A DNA stretch of 64,000 nt from Naegleria gruberi (lineage: Eukaryota), in NCBI GenBank assembly GCA_000004985.1, contig GG738853.1, one strand, 5' to 3'. The translations under genes were made by a program, and so were the position numbers. The notes below the pieces were generated by a model. It worked only from the letters and a program-made list of their open reading frames with translations. It was not told the DNA's origin and did no database searches. Positions 16,811 to 64,000 of the stretch are shown piece by piece. Position 1 is the first letter of the stretch; each line of letters begins with the position of its first letter.

Positions 16811-17084
16811 ACCAAACAAAGCAATTTGGGAACCTACTCTATTATTTATACGATTAATACGATTTCAAATCGTAATTCTTTTCCATCTCTTGAGTTACAG
16901 GAGTCCTGATATCAAAAATGTTGAACAGATAACCATCATATTGTAATAAGTTTGGTGACTAGCTCACTAGTAGTGGTAGATGAAACGAATTGCCAAACAT
17001 ACAACCAAAGGTATCTATGAATTTCAGCAACAGGAAGGAATTTTCTCATTCAGTTTATTGCTACTTTGTGATTGAAACCCTAAT

Positions 17085-17250
17085 TCTACACAATTCTGTT
17101 GTAAATTGACTTCCAATCTAAAATGAAATATGAATGATTGTTGATTCACTTTCAATGAAAAGAAGAAAATCTTTGATATTATACAAGTATTTTTGAATAT
17201 GAAATTTTATAGGGATATTAAAACTTCTTGGAGAATGAAATTACAAACGA
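17085..17250. repeat. Proximal copy of the direct repeat; it is the 3' UTR directly downstream of the calcineurin B stop codon.
   Basis: ttgtaaattgacttccaatctaaaatgaaatatga ... gaaaagaagaaaatctttgatattatacaagtatttttgaatatgaaattttatagggatattaaaacttcttggaga ends about 5 nt from the cnbA stop. Confidence 0.6.
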
Positions 17251-18087
17251 ATGGTCATCTTATTTTCCAAATCTTGATGTGATAGTGTCTTGGCAAATTC
17301 TTCAAAGCTAATTTTACCATCACCATCTTCATCAGCTTCCAAAATTGTTTTATCGACAATTTGTTGCAATTGTACATCACTAAGGTTATTACCAACCATC
17401 ATTTTCAAAACTGTGAAAAGTTCTCCGTTACTTATGTAACCATCTCCATCAATATCGTATACTTTGAAAGCAACTATTAATAAGGTAAATATTTAGTAAC
17501 TAAGGAGAGAAATTGTCTAATTACTTACATTCAAGTTTCCTTTGCTTATCACCTTGAGCATTGAATACCGAGAGTGCAGCAATAAATTCTTTAAAGTTTA
17601 CGGATCCATCACCGTTTTCATCGAATATAGATATAACTCTTTTCACAAGGGGATTGACTGCAAGTTCAGGTATCATCAAAAATTCATCCTTTGATATAGT
17701 TCCGTTACCATCCTTATCAAGCTTCTTGAATCTCTTGTATAACTTTTTAATTTCCTTTTGGGTAACTATTTTAAGATGAAGTAGTTATCAATAAATTGTA
17801 TTATTTTAATTGTCATCGTCATATCGTAAATATTGATCAATCACATTTAAATCATTAAATCAATAATATCAATAATATCATCACCGTCATCATGATGCAA
17901 AGGTGTATTAAAAATATTATTGTTGTATCCGCAAAGATTTTGAAAATTTAATTAGTTTCATACAATAAATACAATAGCAATTAAATCTCTAAGAATGACT
18001 CTTCTACAACAACAATAACTTACAGTTAGTACCCTTTTGCATCTCTTCGACTTCTTCTGGTCTCAACGAGCTGGTATTAGTTCCCAT
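17241..18087 (-). CDS. cnbA: Calcineurin B (protein phosphatase 2B regulatory subunit). Three exons: complement(18024..18087), complement(17529..17765), complement(17241..17473).
   Basis: The protein starts [21 protein letters not shown], then a GTAAGT donor; intron 1 is 258 nt. Exon 2 reads [79 protein letters not shown]; intron 2 is 55 nt. Exon 3 reads [60 protein letters not shown].... It has four EF hands and an N-myristoylation MG start. Exon lengths sum to 534 nt. Confidence 0.85.
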
Positions 18088-18560
18088 ATTTACCGTTGTA
18101 TTTTTTTTGAGTAGTGTTGAGTGAGAGCAACACAGTTGTTAGCCATTTGATCAAAGAGGGAAAAGAAGACTCCAACAACAACCTTTACCTTTCAAAAGAG
18201 ATTTGGAATGGTGATGATTTGTTGTTAGCCAACTTTGCATTTGAAGAATAATTCGAATAAAAAGTTCAAATTGGTTGTTTGGCTCTAAATGCTGAACTCT
18301 ATTGAACACTAACAGCAAAGGTTGATTGTTCCCTCAATAGTTACTTTCTGCATTCTGAAATAACAACAATATAATTATTCTGAATTGAGGCCATAGTTGA
18401 AGCAAAGGTGAAACAATTCGAGTTATAAATCTCTTAAGGTGAAACTTGATGTTTGAGAGTTATTAGCGTATGGTTTCTTCATTGTTCTCTGCTAAAAATT
18501 TAAAGCTGGAATTAAAATCTATTTTTACTTCCATCAAGTAAAATACACAATCTAAAAAAT

Positions 18561-21519
18561 ATGGCAACAGCAACCCTTTCAAATCATTCAGCTTATTCAG
18601 CAGCTGGTATTTTATCTTTGTTGGATGAAAATGATTTCGACCTTCAGGAAATGGCTCTTAGGAAGTTGGATCAAGTTGTGGATCAATACTGGGCCGAAAT
18701 TTCTGAATCCGTTCGTAAATTGTAAGTTGTATTAATACAACAAAAAGAGGAGGCTTACATAGTATTTCAATCATTTAATATTTGACGTGATGATCAATAT
18801 TGTATTAAATAATTTACCATAATCTAGGGAATCGTTGTATGAAAATGAAAAATTCCCAAATCGTGAATTAGCTGCTTTACTTACCTCCAAAGTGTATTAT
18901 CATCTTAACGAGTTTGATGAATCTTTACAATTTGCTCTTGGTGCTGGAAATTTATTTGATGTTAGTAAACAAGACGATGATGAATATGTTAATAAGATCA
19001 TCAGCAAGTGTATTGATACTTACATACAAACAAGACAAAACAATGGAAAGGAGGATCCAAGATTGACAAATATTGTAGAAAGAATGTTTGATAGATGTCT
19101 GCAAGAAGGTGAATATAAACAAGCTTTAGGAATTGCTATTGAAGCTAGAAGATTGGATAAAATAACTCAAGCTATCAAAATTTCACCAAATATCAAGGAA
19201 ATGCTTAACTATACATTTGATGTTGCTATGAATCTTATTGAATTAAGAGATTTTAGACATAATGTTTTGAAGCAATTAGTTGATATTTATATGGAAGATA
19301 AGGAAAATACTGACTACTTTGCAGTGACACAATGTTTAACATTTTTGGATGATGCTAAATCTGTTGCTAATATTTTACATCAATTAATTACATCCAATGA
19401 AGTTAATGATCATGCTATTGCTTATCAAATTGGATTTGATTTACACGATCGTGCACCACAACACTTTTTGGTTTCTGCTCGTGATGTACTTTTACAAGAT
19501 CCTAAGGCTGAGGAACAAGAAACACCTCTTGCTAAACTTTTAACTGTCCTTTCAGGAGAAATTACTATTCAACATAATGTTGACTTTTTACTCAGACACA
19601 ACCATACAGATCTTCAAATTCTTAACAATATCAAATCATCATTTGAAAGAAATTCTGTTCTCCATTCTGGTACAATTACATCCAATGCTTTTATGCATGC
19701 TGGTACAACTGTAGATAAATTCCTTAGAGATAATCTTGAATGGTTGGGTAAGGCCAATAATTGGGCTAAATTCAGTGCTACTGCCAGTTTGGGTGTTATT
19801 CAAAAGGGTAGAATTAAGGACAGTCTCACTATTTTGAAGCCATATCTTCCATCATCAGGTACTGCTTCTACCGCTAGTTCAAGTGTTTATTCTGAAGGTG
19901 GTGCTCTCTTTGGTTTGGGTATTATTCACTCTAATCATTTAGCTAATGATATGACTCAATATTTACTCAATGTTGTTTCTAATCAATCAGCTGATCCAGT
20001 TGTCCAACATGGTGCTTGTTTTGGTTTGGGTTTATGTGGTATGGCTACTCAAGAAGCAGAACTTTATGAAAAGATGAAGGATGTCATGTTTTTGGATAAT
20101 GCTGTTTCAGGTGAAGCTGCTGCTATTGGTATGGGTCTCGTTATGTTGGGAAGTGGTGATGATAAGGCCATTGATGAAATGTTGAACTATGCTCATGAAA
20201 CTGCTCACGAAAAGATTATTAGAGGTCTTGCCATGGGTTTGGCTTTAACTGTTTATGGTAGAGAAGAAGAAGGTAACAAGTTAATTGATAGATTGACTAA
20301 TGATAAGGATCCAATTCTCAGATATGGTGGAATGTACGCTATTGGTTTGGCATTTGCTGGTACTGGTAATAATAATGCTATCAGAAAATTGTTGCAAGTT
20401 GCTGTTTCTGATGTATCTGATGATGTCAGAAGAGCTGCTGTTATTAACTTGGGTTTCCTCCTCTTCAAGTCACCAAAACAATGTCCAAGAATTGTTTCTC
20501 TCCTCGCCGAAAGTTATAATCCTCATGTAAGATATGGTGTTGCTCTTGCTGTTGGTATTTCATGTGCTGGTTCTGGTTTAAAGGAAGCTTTGGATCTTTT
20601 GGAACCATTAGCTTTGGATAGAGTTGACTTTGTTCGTCAAGGTGCTCTCATTGCTCAATCAATGGTTTTGATGCAATTGAATGAAGTTCAAGAACCAAAG
20701 GTTGCTGATTTCCGTAAACATTTGCAAAAGACTTGGTCAACCAGAGCTGAAGAAGTTATGTGTAAATTAGGTTCAATCCTTTCTGCAGGTATTTTAGATG
20801 CTGGTGGTAGAAATGCTACAATTTGTTTGCACAGACATGGTAATAACAAGATGAGAAATATTGTTGGTCTTGCTCTCTTTACTCAATATTGGTTCTGGTA
20901 TCCATATTTACATTTCTTATCACTTTCTCTTGAACCAACTTCAATTATTGGTTTGAATACTGATTTGAAGATGCCATCCCAATTCACTTTCAAGAGTAAT
21001 CAAAAACCATCCATGTTTGCCTATCCACCTCCACTCAAGACTGAAGAAGAAAAGAAGGAAGTTACTGTTGGTCCTGTTGCTGAATTGTCTCTCTCTGCTA
21101 AGGCCAGAGTTAGAGAAGAAAGAAAGAGAAGAAGACCAGAAGGTAGTGCTACTCCTCTCCTCACTCCTCTTACTTCAACTCCAACACCACAAGTTGATCC
21201 AAAGCAACTACCATCACAACCTTCACAAACAGATAAGGATACAAAGAAACAAAAGAAGAAGAAGGAACCAACTTCTGAATCTCTTACAAATCCTGCTCGT
21301 GTAACACCTTCACAACTTAACTTTATTTCATTCGATACAACCAGTAGATATGTTCCTATCAAATTATCTTCTTCATCTGGTATCAATTTGGGTATTAACG
21401 TGCTCAGTGATACAAAACCAGGTGAAGATGCTGATATTTTAACACCTCAAGCTGGTCAAAAATCAGAAGAAAAGGAAGAAAATGAACCACAACCACCAGC
21501 AAGCTTTGAATGGAATTAA
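18561..21519 (+). CDS. psmD1: 26S proteasome regulatory subunit RPN2/PSMD1; exons 18561..18721 and 18828..21519, with a 106-nt intron.
   Basis: Exon 1 reads [54 protein letters not shown], then GTAAGT...TCTAG, then [29 protein letters not shown].... This matches the PSMD1 N-terminus (human AEISESVDKIEVLYEDE) through the PC repeats and the KEKE tail. Confidence 0.9.
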
Positions 21520-34395: not shown

Positions 34396-35529
34396 TTAGA
34401 AACACTTTCTGTGAACGATACCTGGGCCGGCATCCTCATATTCTTCCTTCGTTATCCACATCTGTTGGAATGTTGAAAGTGAGGCTAAAATACTGCCTCC
34501 AATCCAGACTGAGTACTTTCTTTCTGGTGGAGCAACAACCTTAATCTTCATTGAGGCAGGAGCCATAGCAGTCAATTCCTTGGTCATTCTTTCAGCAATA
34601 CCTTCGAACATGGTAGTACCACCAGATAAGACAACGTTACCGTACAAGTCCTTTCTGATGTCAATGTCACATTTACCAATTGAGTTGAAAGTAGTTTCAT
34701 GAACACCAGCAGCTTCCATACCAATGAAATTAGGTTGGAACAAGACTTCTGGACATCTGAATCTTTCATTACCAACAGTGATAACATTACCGTCTGGCAA
34801 TTCATATGACTTTTCAACTGAGGATGATTCAGCAGCAACCTTCATTTCAGCTTCAAAGTCCAAAGCAATATAACAGAGCTTTTCCTTAATATCTCTGACA
34901 ATTTCTCTTTCAGCAGTAGTGTTGAATGAGTAACCTCTTTCCATCAAAATCTTCATCAAGTAATCAGTCAAGTCACGACCAGCCAAATCCAATCTCAAGA
35001 TGGCATGTGGCAAGGCATAACCTTCATAAATTGGAACAGTGTGAGAAACACCATCACCAGAGTCCAAAACAATACCAGTAGTTCTACCAGAAGCATACAA
35101 GGACAAGACAGCTTGAATAGCAACATACATTGCTGGAACTGAGAAGGTTTCAAACATGATTTGAGTCATCTTTTCTCTATTGGCCTTTGGATTCAAAGGA
35201 GCTTCAGTCAACAAGACTGGATGTTCTTCTGGAGCAACTCTCAATTCATTGTAGAAAGTGTGATGCCAGATCTTTTCCATATCATCCCAATTGGTAACAA
35301 TACCATGTTCAATTGGATACTTCAAAGTCAAGATACCTCTCTTTGATTGAGCTTCATCACCAACATAGGCATCCTTGTTACCCATACCAACCATGATGGA
35401 CTTTTGCTTTGGTCTACCAATAATTGAAGGGAAGACAGCTCTTGGAGCATCATCACCAGCAAAACCAGCTTTACACATACCAGAACCGTTGTCAACAACG
35501 AGGGCTTGAACGTCTTCACAGAAGGACAT
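34396..35529 (-). CDS. Actin (intronless, divergent isoform).
   Basis: A 377-aa protein about 88% identical to conventional actins throughout ([84 protein letters not shown]...). It has an unusual N-terminus MSFCEDVQ and scattered substitutions. Confidence 0.9.
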
Positions 35530-41780: not shown

Positions 41781-42929
41781 ATGTTGCCAACAACGAGCGA
41801 TTTAGATGACTTTTTCAACAGTTTCCCTACACCGGTTCAGCTTGTGGAGAAGGAACGAATTACCTTTTGCAATATTTTAGATGATATTCCTGCAGAGAAG
41901 AAACCAACAAGTCCTCCGAAGAGAGACAAGGACATGGCAACCTTTATTCAGGATATCTATGAAGACATCATCATGAAGACGAATTTGGTTGAGACTGAAG
42001 AATTTGAGAATGATCAAAATAGAGTGTCTTTGAGAAGAAGAAAACTTGCCTTGTCTAAAAAAAGTGGAATTTCACAATATGGAGACATTGATAATTTGGA
42101 AATATTCTTGTTTGGTGTTGATGAGAGTCAAAAAGACAAAGTTTGTAAGATTATTGGAGATACAGATATTAAGAAATCTTCTGGCTCCTTGGACATTAAG
42201 AGTTGCAAGACAATTCATAGTGTGATGAAGAAGTGTGAAAAATGTCGATTGATTTTATGGATTTGTACGAAAGATAACAAGGAAATATTGCAGTTATTGG
42301 TTTGTACAAAGGTTTATCCAGTTACCAATGAAAAGCTTGATCCCTCTGAATCCAGAAAGAAAGTAAAGCGCAATAGTCAACCAGGAGAAGCTTCATCTTC
42401 TGGAATAGACGCAGCCAGTACTGATTTGGTGTCTCAACTTGACCTTGCTTTTGCAAATAATTCAAACACTAATAGCTTGCAATCAGCAAGCACAACCATT
42501 CAAAATAATCCTATTCCACATGAAAATAGTCAACCTCTTTCTCAGCCAAAGGTAGTATATAAATCCCGCCCAGCTGAACTTGCCCAAATGTCTCAAGAAG
42601 ATCTCATAGCCAAAATTATTCGATTGGAAGGCATAATAGAAGACAGAGACAATACCGTTGCTTCTACCCATCAACATTACAATGTTAAAATTTCTGAAAT
42701 GGCTCTTGCTCACTTTAACAATATCCAAGAACTGTTCCAACAGATCAATCGTCTTAATAAGGAAAATTGCGATCTCAAATGTACTTTGAATCCACAAGAT
42801 ACAATTGCACACAAGCAACTTTACATTGAACAATTCGAAGATGCAAAAGAAGTGGTCAATCACCAAGAAAATTTAGATTTGTTTGATGGTGAAACTTCTG
42901 ATGACGTTTATAATAACCTTTTCAACTAG
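41781..42929 (+). CDS. Hypothetical protein (382 aa) with a C-terminal coiled coil.
   Basis: A long ORF with an ATG start. Heptad-like C-terminus (LIAKIIRLEGIIEDRDNTVAS..., INRLNKENCDLKCTL). Confidence 0.45.
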   Translation: MLPTTSDLDDFFNSFPTPVQLVEKERITFCNILDDIPAEKKPTSPPKRDKDMATFIQDIYEDIIMKTNLVETEEFENDQNRVSLRRRKLALSKKSGISQYGDIDNLEIFLFGVDESQKDKVCKIIGDTDIKKSSGSLDIKSCKTIHSVMKKCEKCRLILWICTKDNKEILQLLVCTKVYPVTNEKLDPSESRKKVKRNSQPGEASSSGIDAASTDLVSQLDLAFANNSNTNSLQSASTTIQNNPIPHENSQPLSQPKVVYKSRPAELAQMSQEDLIAKIIRLEGIIEDRDNTVASTHQHYNVKISEMALAHFNNIQELFQQINRLNKENCDLKCTLNPQDTIAHKQLYIEQFEDAKEVVNHQENLDLFDGETSDDVYNNLFN

Positions 42930-47114: not shown

Positions 47115-48788
47115 ATGTCCATTCATGCCTTTATCACTCTCGGTGATTTTCAAATGCATAATTATCCAGAAATAACATCAGTGGATTCATCACCAGCCAA
47201 AAACTGGTCAAATATCGACCACTCTCATCAAGAGTACTACTCCCTTTCGAATATTATTAATTTTAATAGTAACACCTCGGAAACTTTTGCTGATGCTCAT
47301 CATCAAGAATTTAATTACCATTATCATCATCATCAGGAAGAGAATAATTATCAGTGTCGTACCACTCGTGCTATTAATAAGACCCGAATCATTCCCTTCA
47401 CTGATAAGGATGGAAGCATTAACAATAGAAGTAATATAGGTAGCATGGAAGAATTTCCATCATCACCATCATCATCAGCTCATCTACAACCAATCTCCTA
47501 TTTATCATCATCAGAGAGTTGGAATTATTCATCATCAACAATATCAACTGAAGAAAATTGCCTTGATGACTATAGAGTAGAATCACCAACAAGTTATTCT
47601 TACTCAACTAATACCGAAGAAGAAGAAGACTGCAACGATAGTTGTTTTGCATCATCATCAACATCATTCTATTATACTACCAGTAACGAGAGTTTATCTG
47701 CTGTTTCGTCAATAGTTTCTCTTGAAGAATTAAGTAATACAATGCCAATTCAAAAGAATAGTTCAAACTCCAACTTTGTACAAAGTGGTGACAGTTTTGA
47801 GGATTTGTCAATTCTCAACGATTCAGATATCATGGTTAGGGAAGAGGAAGATTGGATGTGTCTTCTTTTTCAAGATGGATTAAGAATGATTGATATTGAA
47901 TCGAGAGAATGGATTTTGGAACAAGTTGACTTTGATCAAGATTGGCAATATGTTGCTTGTTCGAATGTCTATTCAAAGAAAAAGTCAACCAACTCACAAC
48001 TTGAAAGAACTAATGTTTCAATGAATTTGAAGAATTTGAAGGATTATATTGATTGGAAGGAGTGTAAACAAGTCACTCATGTAAATAAGTATTCCAAGTT
48101 TGCCAAAACTGCTGGTAATATTCAATATTACAAACCAGCTCAACCAATTGTGAAAAAGAGCAAACTAAGCAAGGGTGTAATGGACTTTGTTTCGTCTGAG
48201 AATTTTGGAATGGCCACCATGTTGGTTTGTCCTCCTTTAATACTCGCTCATTGGTATGCTGTTTATCAAAAGGAAAGTATAGAATTGAATAGTGCCCAAT
48301 ATTTCGAATCTGAATGGGTATTCAATAATAGAGAACAATGCCTGGAATCAGTTGCCATTCTAAAGAGTTATCCTAAATACATTCAAAAACATATCAACCG
48401 ATACAGTCAAGAAGAATTAGACAAAGTCTTTCCAAAGAAAATTATTTCCAAGAGAATTGCCTACGACTATATTCGAAAGCACGGATTTAACATTGAAAAA
48501 GTTGAATCCAAAACTGGATCTACCACTCCTACTTTCTGTATCAAGTGTGGATCTGAAATTTTAATCGAGTTCATTTCCTCATTCCAATTTTGCCTTAACC
48601 TTATCAAGTTGTTTACTTTCATGTCAGTTTCATTCATTTCAAGAACTATGGCTCTTTCAGTCAATATTCTGTATGAACAATTGAGACGTGTCAATGAAGA
48701 AACTTCACACAATGAGGAACCTTTACAATCATCACCAGATGGAGAAGCCATTCTTTATCATACAAAGTTAATTTATTCATGTGAATAA
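47115..48788 (+). CDS. Hypothetical Ser-rich protein (557 aa).
   Basis: A long ORF with an ATG start. Low-complexity S/N/H-rich N-terminal half and a globular C-terminal half. I recognise no domain. Confidence 0.45.
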   Translation: MSIHAFITLGDFQMHNYPEITSVDSSPAKNWSNIDHSHQEYYSLSNIINFNSNTSETFADAHHQEFNYHYHHHQEENNYQCRTTRAINKTRIIPFTDKDGSINNRSNIGSMEEFPSSPSSSAHLQPISYLSSSESWNYSSSTISTEENCLDDYRVESPTSYSYSTNTEEEEDCNDSCFASSSTSFYYTTSNESLSAVSSIVSLEELSNTMPIQKNSSNSNFVQSGDSFEDLSILNDSDIMVREEEDWMCLLFQDGLRMIDIESREWILEQVDFDQDWQYVACSNVYSKKKSTNSQLERTNVSMNLKNLKDYIDWKECKQVTHVNKYSKFAKTAGNIQYYKPAQPIVKKSKLSKGVMDFVSSENFGMATMLVCPPLILAHWYAVYQKESIELNSAQYFESEWVFNNREQCLESVAILKSYPKYIQKHINRYSQEELDKVFPKKIISKRIAYDYIRKHGFNIEKVESKTGSTTPTFCIKCGSEILIEFISSFQFCLNLIKLFTFMSVSFISRTMALSVNILYEQLRRVNEETSHNEEPLQSSPDGEAILYHTKLIYSCE

Positions 48789-58015: not shown

Positions 58016-58666
58016 ATGTCTGAAAAGGAGTACATTTTCATCACGATAGATATTGTCAGAGATTTTGTTTGTGAGGAGGGAATCTTCTGCAAAGCTTTTG
58101 GATATGATGATGTGAGTAATATCATCAATGTAAAGGAAAAGGTGTTGGAGTGCTTGAATTATGTCAAGGATCAAGCTTCCGAAAACATTACAGTTCATCA
58201 CTCTATCTGTTGCCAATCTGTGTATAAACACAAACAATTCAAATCAGCTGGATTGGAAGATTTGTGTGTAACAGAGCAAGGACAAGAATGCATCATTCCC
58301 GATGATTGTTTTGATTATAGAGTAGTCAAGACAACTAATTCTATATTGGATTTGATCAAATGTGAGACAATTGTCAGCACTACTGATGATGATTCAAAGC
58401 AAATTCTAACTCCAAAGGATGCATTCATCAAACTCCTTTCTCAATATAAGCATAGAAAGAACTTGTTCATTATTCTGTTGGGCGTCACAACGAATTCATG
58501 TGTAAAGACCTCTGCTCTCAATATGACCGAAATGGGATTCAATGTTATCATTCCATTGGATTGTGTTGCCTGTAGAAAATCAACAGAACCATCAGCAACT
58601 AGTTTTCTGAAGAAAACACCATCTGTTGCTACTGTTTCATCATGGACCGATTTATTTTCTAATTAG
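58016..58666 (+). CDS. Isochorismatase-like (cysteine hydrolase / nicotinamidase family) protein.
   Basis: ITIDIVRDF (Asp motif) and FIILLGVTTNSCVKTSALNMTEMGFNVIIPLDCVA match the isochorismatase-family core G.ATN.CV...G..V.VV.DA. Confidence 0.65.
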   Translation: MSEKEYIFITIDIVRDFVCEEGIFCKAFGYDDVSNIINVKEKVLECLNYVKDQASENITVHHSICCQSVYKHKQFKSAGLEDLCVTEQGQECIIPDDCFDYRVVKTTNSILDLIKCETIVSTTDDDSKQILTPKDAFIKLLSQYKHRKNLFIILLGVTTNSCVKTSALNMTEMGFNVIIPLDCVACRKSTEPSATSFLKKTPSVATVSSWTDLFSN

Positions 58667-58814: not shown

Positions 58815-59936
58815 ATGTCTGAAAGCAACAACCATAGTGAACCTTCATCATCATCATCATCTGATAATTCCAATGCAAACAATAACAACCAAAAACAACA
58901 AACTTCGGATCAAGATTGGGACACTATTCGTTCCATGACCATTGAAATGAAACCAATAGGTATCTTTCACTCTTGTTATAAATTCAAGAATGCCACACCA
59001 AGACAAGGAGCCTTGGCACCAATCGGAAGAGGACGTCTCAAGATTCAATCACCTCTATTTGCCATGAACAATCAACATCACTCTCTGATGGGAATTGAAC
59101 AATTTTCTCATGTTTGGCTTGTTTATTATTTCCATGATAATAATAATATGGAGAAATTAAATACAATTCATCAGAACAATACTACTAACAATACTACAAA
59201 CGATAGTAATAGTGATAATAATAATAATAATAGTCAGAACAATAATAATAACAGTGAAGAAGAACAAGGCTTGATTCGTCCACAAGTTAAACCACCCCGA
59301 TTGAATGGAAAGAAGGTTGGATTGTTTTCTGTTCGTTCTCCTCATCGTCCTAATCCAATTGGCCTAACATTGGCCACTATTGAACAAGTTGATTTGAAAA
59401 AGGGTGAATTATTATTGAGTGGAGTGGATTTAATTGATGGAACACCAGTTCTAGATATTAAACCATATATTTCAAGATATGATTCAGTATTTGGTGGTGT
59501 TGATATTTATGGAAGAAAGGCAACTGGATATGAAAACAATGATGAGAAGAAGGTTGAATATAAAGAACCTGAATGGATTGATTTGGATCCAGTTGTGGGA
59601 CATATTAATAGTGTAGAATTTACTGAGGAAGCAATTACTCAAATTAAAGAATGTTCAATCGAATTGGATATTGAAAAACAATTTGGATATAAGAATTGGA
59701 TAGATGTTAGAGAGGCCATTGAACAAATGCTCATTCTTGACCCAAGAAGTATCTATAGAAGAAAGAAGTGTGAAGATAAGGTCTATTGGTTCCACTTTGA
59801 TGATTTGAATCTGAGTACAACAATTAAAACAGAGGGTGATAAGACTGTTGCTACAGTTTTCAAATGCGAGATTTGGAGTAAGATTGTAGCATCACTGACA
59901 GAGGAAGAAAAGAGGATTCACCACATCACCAAATAG
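58815..59936 (+). CDS. tRNA (adenine37-N6)-methyltransferase TrmO/TsaA (YaeB family) with an N/S-rich insertion and a C-terminal extension.
   Basis: IGIFHSCYKFKNATPRQ ... SHVWLVYYFH ... PPRLNGKKVGLFSVRSPHRPNPIGLTLATIEQVDLKKGELLLSGVDLIDGTPVLDIKPY is the TsaA-like core. A ~50-aa N-rich low-complexity insert lies between the two halves. Confidence 0.7.
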   Translation: MSESNNHSEPSSSSSSDNSNANNNNQKQQTSDQDWDTIRSMTIEMKPIGIFHSCYKFKNATPRQGALAPIGRGRLKIQSPLFAMNNQHHSLMGIEQFSHVWLVYYFHDNNNMEKLNTIHQNNTTNNTTNDSNSDNNNNNSQNNNNNSEEEQGLIRPQVKPPRLNGKKVGLFSVRSPHRPNPIGLTLATIEQVDLKKGELLLSGVDLIDGTPVLDIKPYISRYDSVFGGVDIYGRKATGYENNDEKKVEYKEPEWIDLDPVVGHINSVEFTEEAITQIKECSIELDIEKQFGYKNWIDVREAIEQMLILDPRSIYRRKKCEDKVYWFHFDDLNLSTTIKTEGDKTVATVFKCEIWSKIVASLTEEEKRIHHITK

Positions 59937-60121: not shown

Positions 60122-61470
60122 ATGGTTGGTTTCCTACATAGCTCTGGAAATAATGGAGATGATCTTCAGGAACCTAAATCACCAACCCGAACCAATTCAA
60201 ATGCCAGCAACAATGCTCAAACACAGAGGAAGAAGTCGACTTTTCTTTCTCCTACTCAAGTAGCAACCAGTTTGGCAGATATGAGCGAAGGAAAGAGAAG
60301 AAGTAGTCTTGTTCCAGAAACTCCAGAAAGTAATAAATTGAGAATTGTATTGATAGGAGGTGGTGGTAAGTTATGCATTAGAATTATCGAATAACACATT
60401 GTATTTCTTCAAGGTTCCGGAAAGACAACCCTCTTTAAACAGAGAAAACTTGTGTTAGGGGGCGGTTTTAGTGGTAAGTTTTAATGAGAGATGAGAACCA
60501 TCTAAATTGCATTTCATCACTACACTTCAGAGAGAGAATATGAACAAGCAAGACTCATTGTTCATACAGAGCTTCTTCATGTCATGTACAGTTTGGCATA
60601 TGAATTGTATAATGGCGATTTTGTGTCAAATGAAAATGTAAAACAAATAGCTCACGATTTCTTGAAGATAGTATCGGAGAAGTGTAATCATAACGAACAT
60701 GCTCTCATCAATTGTATTGAGCATATTATTGAAAAATCTCAACTTTGGAAAACATTCTTTACGAAGGAAATATTCAAGCAAGTTATGGAATTTAATCCGA
60801 AATTTTCATCACTTTTTAATTTTTCTGTGGATCCTTACTTTTCAGAATATGATAGAGTAATGCATATGGATTTCAAACCTCTCGAAAAAGATCATATAGT
60901 ATTTCAGAAAAAGACAACAGGTATTGTCGAGTCAAGTTTCGAATATATGAATTCTTTCATTGTTCATCTGTAAGTAACTCATTCTATTAGAATTCAACTA
61001 GATCTATTACCTTTAGATTCGACTCTGGAGGACAAAGAAATGAACGTAAAAAGTGGCCAAACATGTTCTCTCAACCAGTTGATAGCGTTTGGTTTGTTGG
61101 TTCTCTATCCGATTTCACCAAGATGTGTTACGAAAACAATACTCTTAATCGTTTCGAGGACTCCCTGGCAGTATTCAGTGATTGGATTGATTCTAATACT
61201 ACAAAGAATATTAGAGATTTTAGACTTATTCTAACTCATGCTGATGAGCTTGAAGAAATGCATATTAGCCCAGAAACTATCTCATTCCTCAAGTCAAATC
61301 TTATTCCACACGGAAATGCCAAGGAGATTATCGATGGCATCACTGCCAAGTATCAACTCTTAGATAAGAATAACAGGTTGACCCAAGTTTCTGTGATTAA
61401 TTGTACTGATACAGAACAAATTAGAGACTATTTAACCACAACTCTAAATAGTATTATTGATGGCAGATAA
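60122..61470 (+). CDS. Divergent heterotrimeric G-protein alpha-subunit-like GTPase; four exons 60122..60365, 60414..60473, 60531..60969 and 61017..61470.
   Basis: The splice junctions were verified against ORF anchors (introns 48, 57 and 47 nt, all GTAAGT..AG). Exon lengths sum to 1197 nt (398 aa). It has the P-loop IGGGGSGKTTLFKQ, switch I FQKKTTGIVES, switch II FDSGGQRNERKKW, and INCTDTE in place of TCATDT. It aligns to G-alpha across the helical and Ras-like domains. Confidence 0.75.
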
Positions 61471-61553: not shown

Positions 61554-63005
61554 TTATTTCTTATCCATTTCCTTCTTGAGGATTGGACAACATTTCTCAA
61601 TAAAGAATTTTGTGTTAAATGTTGTAGATTCGTATAATTCAAACCGAGAAAGTCCATCATCAGATTGAATTAAATGTTTGGAACAAAATTCCATAATCTT
61701 TTTCTGTATCTTCTTACTTGTTGATGGTTGATCCTCGTTAATCTTATCATAAATTGATACAAGCAATAAGAATGCCTTCTTTTCTTCATGATTCCTTATT
61801 GGTTTATCCCCTTCAATCATTTGCAAAACAAGAAATTCCCTAATTAGTTAAAATTTAAGAATAAAAATTTCTCTGTAGTGATATTTGTTTGCTACTTACA
61901 GTGTCTTCTTATAGATTGTAAGGGATTTAATCTTCTTAATCTCTCTTGTATTGAAGAATAATTCTCTATAAAATAAGAATGCTTCTTCTTCCTTTCTTTT
62001 AACACTTTTTGGAATTTTGGCAAGTTTTTCACCATTCTTTGATGATATTCTTCTAAACATTGACATGTCGTTCATGATACACCATTGCCAAGTTTTCAAA
62101 TAATCAACGCTCAGTATCAGGTTGAGTAAACTGACAAGTTGATAATATCTCTTATGAAGGAGTGCTTGTTTCTTTTCCAGAGATTCGTCCTGAAGTACTG
62201 GAAGCGCTGATCGTGGGCTCAGTACCCCTTGTTTCAATCTCTTAAAATTGAAATGTTGTTCACCTAGAAGAAACACATCAGGATTCTCCACAACAGGTGA
62301 AGTTGGAAATACAGTTCCTTCCACCAGTGACGTTGGTGAAACAATCTTCTTCTTTGCCTTCTTACACACTTTTATAAACTCTTCACACTGCCTAGAGTAT
62401 TGCAACATTAATGGAACAGCAATCTGAGTACTATGTTTACAAAAATCATGTAAATCAATCACTTTTAAAACATTATTTTGAAACAGCTTGTCAAACATTT
62501 CACTTGAAAACAACAAGGATTCCTCCTCTGATGTCTCTGCACTCTGTGTAATCTGTGCAATGGTTTTATAATTAAATATAAACGATAGCATGGCATCTCC
62601 TCGTCCAATATTCCTCCTATAAATTAAATCCAATGAATAGTCTTCATATTCCCTCGAGAGTGGTAAAATACATTTCAATAGAGTTTCATCATCAATAAAA
62701 TTCTCCATCATGTAATGAACAACCTCTCTCGGAATCAATCGAAATTGTCTATAATTATTCTTGATAATAATTAAATCAATTGAATCAAAATTAGGATTCT
62801 GATGACATTCTGTATCCATCGATCCAGCATCTGAATACGCTGACTGATCAACAATTCCTCCTCCTCCCAATAACAACGCACCACCACCATTATTACTATT
62901 ATTATTAGTACCACCAACAATATCCGAGGATGAATCAAAGACTTTGGCAAATGAAACATCATTCTCCTTGTTGTTGCCTGGCGAAAAGATCATTTTTTTT
63001 TTCAA
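61554..63005 (-). CDS. Hypothetical protein (~463 aa); exons complement(61900..63005) and complement(61554..61839), with a 60-nt intron.
   Basis: The ORF 61896..63005 ends ...IYKKT at a GTAAGT donor. After the 60-nt intron (...AACTAATTAG) the frame continues LEFLVLQMIEGDKPIRNHEEKKAFLLL... into ORF 61554..61826. It has a Gly/Asn-rich N-terminus. I recognise no domain. Confidence 0.5.
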
Positions 63006-63201
63006 AGTACCAAGTTCATAATTTTTGCGTGATGATTTTTGATGATTTTTCTGTTTTTATGAAAAAATTTGTAACAATGGATGAAAATTGTAAACATTTA
63101 AGAAGTTGTTGTAAAGTGGAAAGTTAAACGTTGGTTCATTAGAATGCATTCGTGTTGAGTGGTTGTTTATTATTAGTTCAACAAACTTTACAAAAAAAAA
63201 A

Positions 63202-63692: not shown

Positions 63693-64000
63693 TTAAAATT
63701 GAATCATAGAAAAGAACATTGTAGATCTTATCTATTGAAAATTAAGTGCACACCATAAATGGTCAGTCATACTTTCGAATTGCTTTTAGTCAAAAGTTTC
63801 TAAAAAAGAATAAATTGTCAGCATACTCGCTTTATGGAAGGACCTTGTTATTCTTTCAACAAGAAAAACCAAACAACAACTTCTCTCATAATCTTCCTCT
63901 CTGGTTGCCTGCCTCTACACTTTCGAATAGTTTCCTCCACAATTTTCAAACATAAAGAAAGTTCTCTAACACACAACTTTCATCACACTAAAAGAATAAT

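Follow-up and report, generated by a model that had tools for sequence, protein, structure and literature searches.

The gene at positions 60122–61470 (plus strand) of a 64,000-nucleotide stretch of Naegleria gruberi NEG-M contig GG738853.1 (GenBank assembly GCA_000004985.1; this whole stretch is "the window" below) has four exons that join in frame to encode a 398-residue protein, and this protein is a diverged, motif-altered paralog of the heterotrimeric G-protein α subunit (Gα) in a genome known for such copies. We favour, at a probability of roughly 0.55, the view that this gene, NAEGRDRAFT_64277, is a lineage-specific diverged Gα paralog under purifying selection whose product works as a weakly binding, slowly hydrolysing soluble switch. 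The protein has kept the Gα fold, the phosphate and Mg2+ set (Lys85/Thr86, Thr230, Asp250 and Gln254) and the guanine-specific Asp, and it has lost or changed the Arg finger with its P-loop Glu partner, NKxD (at Asn and Lys), the Ala of the G5 box and, at its two ends, the lipidation site, αN helix and α5 tail.

Family membership and motifs of the encoded protein

By sequence and by predicted fold the gene product is a Gα relative. It matches the Pfam G-alpha profile (PF00503) with an E-value of 1.6e-60 and 205.5 bits (cutoff 48.8) over profile positions 17–331 of 333, in line with the collinearity with Gα that had been proposed, along with the four exons, in an earlier, sequence-only reading of this DNA; no Pfam domain besides G-alpha is significant in the N-terminal region. 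Its best sequence match in the PDB is N. fowleri Gα7 (6ne6, 5e-32), mammalian Gαi/o come next, and its identity to solved Gα structures is 23–26%. An AlphaFold2 model built from the 138-sequence alignment described below has a mean predicted local distance difference test score (pLDDT) of 83.8 and a predicted template-modelling score of 0.80; it superposes on Gαq/t/i, and the top 50 Foldseek matches in the PDB are all Gα, with target-normalised template-modelling scores of 0.75–0.88. Helices at residues 102–211 of the model, which have high pLDDT, sit between β1/α1 and β2 and thus form the inserted all-helical domain.

Motifs were placed with two alignments made independently. One is a set of HMMER pairwise comparisons with Gαi1 and N. 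fowleri (Nf) Gα7; the other is a MAFFT alignment that joins the query to 137 relatives (138 sequences in total), nearly all of them recovered by searching 1.84 billion representatives exhaustively with HMMER. Registration rests on both sequence alignments and on flanking invariant residues, while the structural comparison gave scores only. The translation contains the elements GGGGSGKTT, KKTTGIVE, DSGGQRNERKKW, LILTHADELEE and INCTDTE, and the query retains 45 of the 71 positions at which at least 75% of the relatives agree. The parts of the gene that encode these elements are as follows (all on the plus strand).

60122–60365 (+): exon 1, with the start codon, the disordered Ser/Thr/Asn-rich residues 1–70, β1 and the first half of the P-loop (…IGGGG)
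60356–60430 (+): G1/P-loop, G79-GGGSGKT-T87, split by intron 1
60366–60413 (+): intron 1, 48 nt, GTAAGT…AG, interrupting the P-loop codons; read-through gives a stop
60414–60473 (+): exon 2, encoding SGKTTLFKQRKLVLGGGFS
60474–60530 (+): intron 2, 57 nt, at a position kept in N. lovaniensis (between GGFS and E)
60531–60969 (+): exon 3, the all-helical domain and switch I
60905–60931 (+): switch I, Q227-KKTTGIV-E235
60970–61016 (+): intron 3, 47 nt, phase 2, with codon and phase as in N. lovaniensis
61017–61470 (+): exon 4, with G3/switch II, G4, G5 and a short α5 helix; stop codon at 61468–61470
61021–61056 (+): G3/switch II, D250-SGGQRNERKK-W261
61234–61245 (+): G4 box, T321-H322-A323-D324 where NKxD is expected
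61396–61410 (+): G5 box, I375-N376-C377-T378-D379 where TCATD is expected

The P-loop, GGGGSGKTT, fits the general form GxxxxGK[ST], and its Gly79, Gly84 and Lys85 are nearly invariant (136/138, 137/138 and 137/138, respectively). It departs from the stricter Gα form G-x-G-[ED]-SGK at position 82, the position of Gαi1 Glu43, where the query has Gly (138-sequence column: E 95, D 18, G 20); the Glu or Asp that is usual there is the partner of the Arg finger. In switch I the Arg-finger column (Gαi1 R178) holds Arg in 126/138 sequences and Gln227 in the query. Asp222, Gln227 and Thr230 are spaced exactly like Gαi1 D173, R178 and T181, which leaves no indel in switch I, and Lys228 aligns to Gαi1 Val179. 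The sequence-only reading had put a Lys at the finger position, which is off by one residue; we also considered and rejected a "Lys finger" at Lys228, since Lys occurs in that column in 9/138 sequences, most of which keep the Arg. Thr230, the equivalent of the Mg2+ ligand, is kept (T in 129/138), and Thr231 and Gly232 are the switch I equivalents of residues that contact RGS domains.

In the G3 motif DSGGQ the catalytic Gln254 is kept (Q in 135/138), as is Trp261 of switch II, and Ser251 stands where 126/138 sequences have Val, a change from DVGGQ that had been noticed before. The G4 sequence THAD aligns to NKKD of Gαi1, in columns that are N in 129/138, K in 131/138 and D in 138/138; it was placed at G4, not outside it, in both the Gαi1 pairwise and the 138-sequence alignments, in agreement with the earlier description of a degenerate NKxD. 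Relative to the pattern [NT]KxD, Lys is replaced by His and Asp324 is kept, and His at the second G4 position is found, among the 138 sequences, only in the query and its N. lovaniensis ortholog. The G5 box reads INCTD for the consensus TCATD, with Cys377 at the position of Gαi1 Ala326 (A in 126/138).

Both ends of the protein are also altered. The N-terminus, MVGF, has no Gly2, there is no Cys before residue 153 and there is no CAAX box, which agrees with the earlier statement that an N-terminal lipidation signal is absent; 97/138 relatives and none in the query's clade begin with MG. The AlphaFold2 model has pLDDT below 50 for residues 1–62 and no long N-terminal helix, and the ten residues that precede β1 include two prolines and therefore do not form an αN helix; we predict from the model that this helix is absent and that residues 1–62 are disordered. 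Only 20 residues separate the G5 Asp from the C-terminus (the mode is 27, and 93/138 relatives have 26–28), which leaves the α5 tail about 7 residues short relative to the relatives. The stretch missing from α5 is the extreme tail that in other Gα proteins inserts into activated receptors. Counted by feature, the Arg finger, NKxD, TCAT, the lipidated αN and the α5 tail are the five canonical Gα features that the query does not have.

An upstream exon that might provide an MG start was considered and rejected. The stop codon of the preceding gene (58815–59936, plus strand) lies 186 nt from the ATG, and in a second strain (below) this interval carries 12-nt and 2-nt indels; such indels upstream of the ATG, not all of them in triplets, indicate that the 5' flank is non-coding.

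Conservation, gene model and nearest relatives

The N. lovaniensis ortholog, C9374_004820 (P0001), is 43–44% identical to the query over its full length and lies in the same gene order (an unnamed upstream gene, an isochorismatase-like gene, the Gα-like gene and a convergent downstream gene). It retains FQKKTTGIVESSF (identical), GGQRNERKKW, THLD and NSTDT, and at the Cys377 position it carries Ser, the exact counterpart of Gαi1 A326S. Identity between the two is 55/75 (73%) in the G1, switch I, G3/switch II, G4 and G5 windows and 86/252 (34%) in the remaining core, so that, judged from these sequences, the nucleotide pocket and the switches are the most constrained region of the protein; this difference argues against a pseudogene and against loss of nucleotide binding. 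Word-based searches found no N. fowleri ortholog of this gene, but the same searches missed the N. gruberi model too and so are no proof of loss.

A second strain is represented by an N. gruberi-like metagenomic contig (L002, run ERR1078381) that spans the whole gene. Relative to the reference its exons are substituted at 11/1197 positions (0.9%) and its introns at 12/152 (7.9%; Fisher p = 1.2e-6), and 4/11 exon substitutions are non-synonymous, which gives a ratio of non-synonymous to synonymous polymorphism (pN/pS) of about 0.15. By these sequence comparisons the altered motifs are conserved and the gene is under purifying selection, with no decay. The run belongs to an environmental metagenome (PRJEB11402), and the Naegleria strain in it shares about 99% of the exon positions of this gene with NEG-M. 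On contigs L002 and L003 prokaryote-style gene callers have cut the gene into open reading frame (ORF) fragments, P0077 and P0078, and the 90% cluster that includes EFC47748.1 is represented by the 129-residue fragment P0077, which hides the true N. gruberi protein in clustered databases.

The window has a G+C content of 30–38% and short GT..AG introns. The three introns (48, 57 and 47 nt) each have GTAAGT at the 5' end and AG at the 3' end, and stop codons are met when the reading frame is left unspliced. The N. lovaniensis ortholog has two introns, and their codon positions match those of introns 2 and 3 in N. gruberi; intron 1 is missing from the ortholog and is substituted at 7/48 positions in the second strain. 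The junctions of the sequence-only reading thus stand well for introns 2 and 3, which match the ortholog, and the faster divergence of introns than exons also fits them, but the reference annotation disagrees with one of them. That annotation, the "predicted protein" EFC47748.1 of 403 residues, differs from the four-exon model at intron 3 only, where it uses an acceptor at 61001 in place of 61016; this site, 15 nt upstream, yields a 32-nt intron and inserts SITFR immediately before DSGGQ. In the ortholog the intron matches in both codon and phase, interrupting the sequence two residues ahead of the DxxGQ Asp, and the five-residue insertion is absent. Because intron 3 of the ortholog matches without an insertion we favour junction 60969/61017 over the annotated one, and, on this sequence comparison, EFC47748.1 is probably wrong at intron 3 or an alternative isoform. 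The N. gruberi reference model thus seems to hold a spurious five-residue insertion beside DxxGQ.

The next-best matches in the exhaustive search, P0079, P0080 and P0082 (E-values 1e-39 to 1e-45), belong to a second group of Naegleria proteins, here called clade B. P0082 is N. lovaniensis C9374_005365 and has an N. fowleri ortholog, FDP41_012998 (P0227); P0079 (L004:652-2298) was recovered from the metagenome that also yielded the N. gruberi-like strain, and P0080 is likewise metagenomic. In a neighbor-joining analysis of 136 sequences and 312 columns with 200 bootstraps, the query clade (clade A) and clade B (P0082, P0227, P0079 and P0080) are sisters in 198/200 replicates. In both clades the first G4 position is Thr, the second is not Lys and the Arg finger is absent; as three independent characters, these speak for common ancestry. 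Clade B proteins resemble the query further at the finger, where Gln or Val follows a Phe and replaces the Arg, in their short α5 tails (19–21 residues) and in an N-terminus without an MG start, which in clade B is long and of low complexity. They differ from it in reading TN[VT]D at G4, in the sequence of the helical domain and in several members that have no catalytic Gln (DVGGN, DLAGV), and they are only 25–30% identical to it. Clade B looks more degenerate than the gene at 60122–61470.

Proposed switch mechanism and alternative explanations

In the mechanism that we favour, which is built largely by analogy with characterised GTPases, the protein would still bind guanine nucleotide and Mg2+, but more weakly. 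Guanine should still be the ligand because Asp324 is kept and because THLD, which differs from THAD at one residue, has been reported as the G4 sequence of the Roc domain of human LRRK2, which binds guanine nucleotides (bioRxiv 10.1101/2019.12.24.888222). Nucleotide exchange would be spontaneous and affinity lowered, since the Asn and Lys contacts are lost, the Arg-Glu pair is gone and a larger residue stands at the Ala326 position. Gαi1 A326S is a fast-exchange mutant, and a larger residue at Ala326 speeds GDP release; the A326S Gαi1 entry, PDB 1bh2, is one of the Foldseek matches. The Arg-Glu43 pair has likewise been implicated in the control of exchange (PMC9283941).

Intrinsic GTP hydrolysis would be slow, given the strong reduction in catalytic rate (kcat) that follows mutation of the switch I Arg in mammalian proteins. 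Such mutations (Gαi1 R178, Gαs R201) sharply reduce GTPase activity. Impaired hydrolysis had already been proposed from the sequence and is a reasonable reading of the loss of Arg, and the case is stronger than was then thought because the residue is Gln and not the chemically closer Lys. The protein would accordingly be expected in the cell mostly in a GTP-loaded state unless a partner supplies catalysis. Because the anchor, the αN helix and the α5 tail are absent, it would act as a soluble cytosolic switch or adaptor uncoupled from seven-transmembrane (7TM) receptors, probably without Gβγ binding and so outside a classical heterotrimer. Nf Gα5 and Gα7 self-activate under the control of 7TM-RGS proteins (PMC9283941), and the predicted behaviour would, by analogy, extend this trend measured in Naegleria. 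The αN loss, the short α5, the Ala326 to Cys and Glu43 to Gly changes and the conservation of the altered motifs in the ortholog and partly in clade B had no place in the sequence-only reading.

Several points weigh against this mechanism. For the kinetics we extrapolate from mammalian Gα point mutants and from the unrelated GTPase LRRK2; several simultaneous changes in the pocket could abolish nucleotide binding altogether, as has been proposed for plant XLG2; the losses of αN and of the α5 tail are deduced from an AlphaFold2 model and from alignment lengths; conservation is seen in two species and one additional strain; and long-branch attraction may have raised the support for joining the query to clade B, since other divergent sequences attach next.

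If binding were indeed abolished, the protein would be a nucleotide-independent pseudo-GTPase or scaffold like the plant XLGs, nucleotide-free in vivo and acting by protein-protein contacts alone. We regard this as a possible but unlikely alternative. Five positions of the pocket (E43 to Gly, Arg to Gln, Asn to Thr, Lys to His and Ala to Cys) leave residues that are 69–99% conserved, clade B has also lost the catalytic Gln (DLAGV, DVGGN), as would be expected were catalysis dispensable, and XLGs bind GTPγS very poorly and work with GTP binding mutated (PMC8584482). Yet GxxxxGK[ST], the Mg-ligand Thr, DxxGQ and the guanine-specific Asp are all intact in the query, THLD is reported in a genuine guanine-nucleotide-binding domain, and the best conservation falls in the switch and G-box windows (above), which is hard to square with a protein that has no bound nucleotide. 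More improbable, in our estimation, is a small-GTPase-like switch in which a dedicated GTPase-activating protein (GAP) puts an Arg or other catalytic residue into the Gln227 site, with an RGS domain perhaps stabilising the switches. The retention of Gln254 and of the RGS-contact equivalents Thr231, Gly232, Glu257 and Lys260 fits such a switch, as do the more than 100 RGS-domain proteins that Naegleria encodes (PMC9283941) and an LRR-IQ-RGS-RhoGEF gene about 5.5 kb downstream of the N. lovaniensis ortholog; gene proximity is weak evidence in eukaryotes, however, and in the model the helical domain covers the nucleotide site and leaves little room for a finger in trans. Moreover, we know of no Arg-donating GAP for any Gα, and RGS domains donate no arginine.

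The degenerate NKxD could also be taken to mean altered base specificity (ATP, xanthosine triphosphate (XTP) or promiscuous binding), since two of the three specific G4 residues are replaced and the Obg-family proteins YchF/OLA1, with an NxxE-type G4, have been reported as having altered boxes (bioRxiv 10.1101/2019.12.24.888222). We give this very little weight, because Asp324, the reader of guanine N1 and N2, is kept in a column that is Asp throughout the alignment. Known switches of specificity alter this Asp itself (D to N gives XTP, NxxE gives ATP). The relaxed nucleotide specificity offered in the sequence-only reading is for these reasons, together with the THLD of LRRK2 Roc, the weaker of its options, and lower affinity with faster exchange fits better. 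Least credible of all is a decaying pseudogene or a gene-model artefact whose true transcript would restore NKxD and the Arg finger. The disagreement of the reference annotation at one acceptor site speaks in its favour; the altered motifs lie inside the long uninterrupted exons 3 and 4, the N. lovaniensis ortholog shares the changes, and an unbroken ORF is present in both strains and both species, with the low pN/pS given above and introns that diverge nine-fold faster than exons. Pseudogene and mis-splicing were rejected on this conservation across the ortholog and the second strain. We thus retain the weakly binding, slowly hydrolysing soluble switch as the preferred account of NAEGRDRAFT_64277.

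Surrounding locus, possible subfamily and comparison with known systems

The large N. lovaniensis gene with LRR, IQ, RGS and RhoGEF regions lies at 17072–21510 of PYSW02000022.1 (L001), and it is similar to the one RGS-RhoGEF protein reported as a Gα effector in N. fowleri (PMC9283941); the window stops at 64000, short of the corresponding position in N. gruberi. The convergent downstream gene (61554–63056, minus strand) has 43–49% identity in N. lovaniensis and a borderline match to the Pfam CYRIA/CYRIB Rac1-binding family (E = 5.5e-5, 23.0 bits against a cutoff of 23.1). The upstream neighbor at 58815–59936 (+) encodes a homolog of TrmO-type tRNA methyltransferases that is split by a long Asn/Ser-rich low-complexity insert, and no counterpart of this ORF was found at E ≤ 1e-5 within the N. 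lovaniensis locus examined; before it, at 58016–58666 (+), lies the gene for the isochorismatase-like protein. Elsewhere in the window, 41781–42926 and 47115–48785 (EFC47739 and EFC47742) have near-identical shorter copies, EFC35745 and EFC35742, on a 9,198-bp N. gruberi scaffold that is probably an unmerged haplotype or an assembly duplicate; an intron-less actin gene at 34399–35529 (−) has a 377-residue product identical to EFC36529, EFC37355, EFC38601 and EFC45736; and prolyl-tRNA synthetase EFC47882 is also encoded. Seven single-exon ORFs of the window were compared with known proteins; five, among them EFC47882, agree exactly with N. gruberi NEG-M proteins, and a sixth is an actin that recurs at several N. 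gruberi loci.

The gene, its N. lovaniensis ortholog and clade B might together be a small conserved Naegleria group of Gα-fold proteins outside the heterotrimeric cycle, which would be soluble, self-loading, low-affinity GTP switches inactivated by a catalytic residue supplied in trans, and which would have no lipid anchor, no αN helix or Gβγ platform, no receptor tail and no Arg in cis. We hold this joint claim tentatively, with the odds well against it as a whole. If true, the subfamily would be a case of Gα turned back into a small-GTPase-style or LRRK2-Roc-like switch, and the clade B gene of the pathogen N. fowleri, FDP41_012998, falls in the same uncharacterised group. If the favoured mechanism holds, the protein itself would be a natural experiment on what a Gα switch minimally requires, with an intact phosphate and Mg2+ site, no Arg finger in cis and a base-binding pocket closer to that of LRRK2 Roc than to that of Gα. 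It would also be a heterolobosean counterpart to the plant XLGs, and would join plants, Trichomonas and N. fowleri as evidence for widespread receptor-independent, self-activating G-proteins outside animals.

The significance of any single such gene is limited by its setting. Lineage-specific diversification of Gα has been described in N. gruberi (PMC3971589), and according to PMC8584482 this species has 44 Gα genes, some of them with unusual catalytic motifs and without an anchor at the N-terminus. The earlier designation of this gene as an unusual variant therefore holds in that it is an altered Gα paralog, and holds less well in that deviant, unanchored copies had already been noted among those 44. 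In the literature searched we found no description of the gene, of the combination of THxD with Gln at the finger position or of the two-clade subfamily, where the 2011 comparative paper is represented only through PMC8584482.

Compared with canonical Gα (human Gαi1, N. fowleri Gα7 6ne6), the query has the same Ras-like domain and inserted helical domain in the same order, and the same P-loop, Mg-ligand Thr, DxxGQ-R-x-ERKKW switch II and G5 TxD. It differs in having Gln for the Arg finger, THAD for NKxD, Cys for the G5 Ala and Gly for the P-loop Glu, and in having no Gly2/Cys lipidation site, no αN helix and an α5 that is about 7 residues shorter. The self-activating Gα proteins, Arabidopsis GPA1 and N. 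fowleri Gα5 and Gα7, in which exchange outpaces hydrolysis independently of a receptor acting as guanine-nucleotide exchange factor (PMC9283941), behave as we predict for the query, for which self-activation is deduced from its motifs; unlike it, they retain both the Arg finger and NKxD, and 7TM-RGS proteins speed up their GTP hydrolysis.

Plant XLG1–3 are, like the query, derived from Gα with deviant G-box residues, and they bind nucleotide weakly and function outside the classical receptor-driven cycle (PMC8584482). They have a large N-terminal extension with a Cys-rich region and a nuclear localisation signal and have retained Gβγ binding, whereas the query has a short disordered Ser/Thr/Asn-rich N-terminus without Cys, intact phosphate and Mg2+ residues and an independent origin (Heterolobosea as opposed to plants); with no Cys-rich extension and a different lineage, it is not an XLG. 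LRRK2 Roc, of the ROCO proteins, has a G4 box, THLD, that the N. lovaniensis ortholog shares exactly and that differs from the query's THAD at one residue, but it belongs to another GTPase family, has no helical domain and has a COR partner. The Roc Pfam match of the query (E = 0.06) is below the cutoff and covers 18 P-loop residues only, and no COR domain was found, so the query is not a ROCO protein; its resemblance to LRRK2 Roc is convergent and is confined to one motif.

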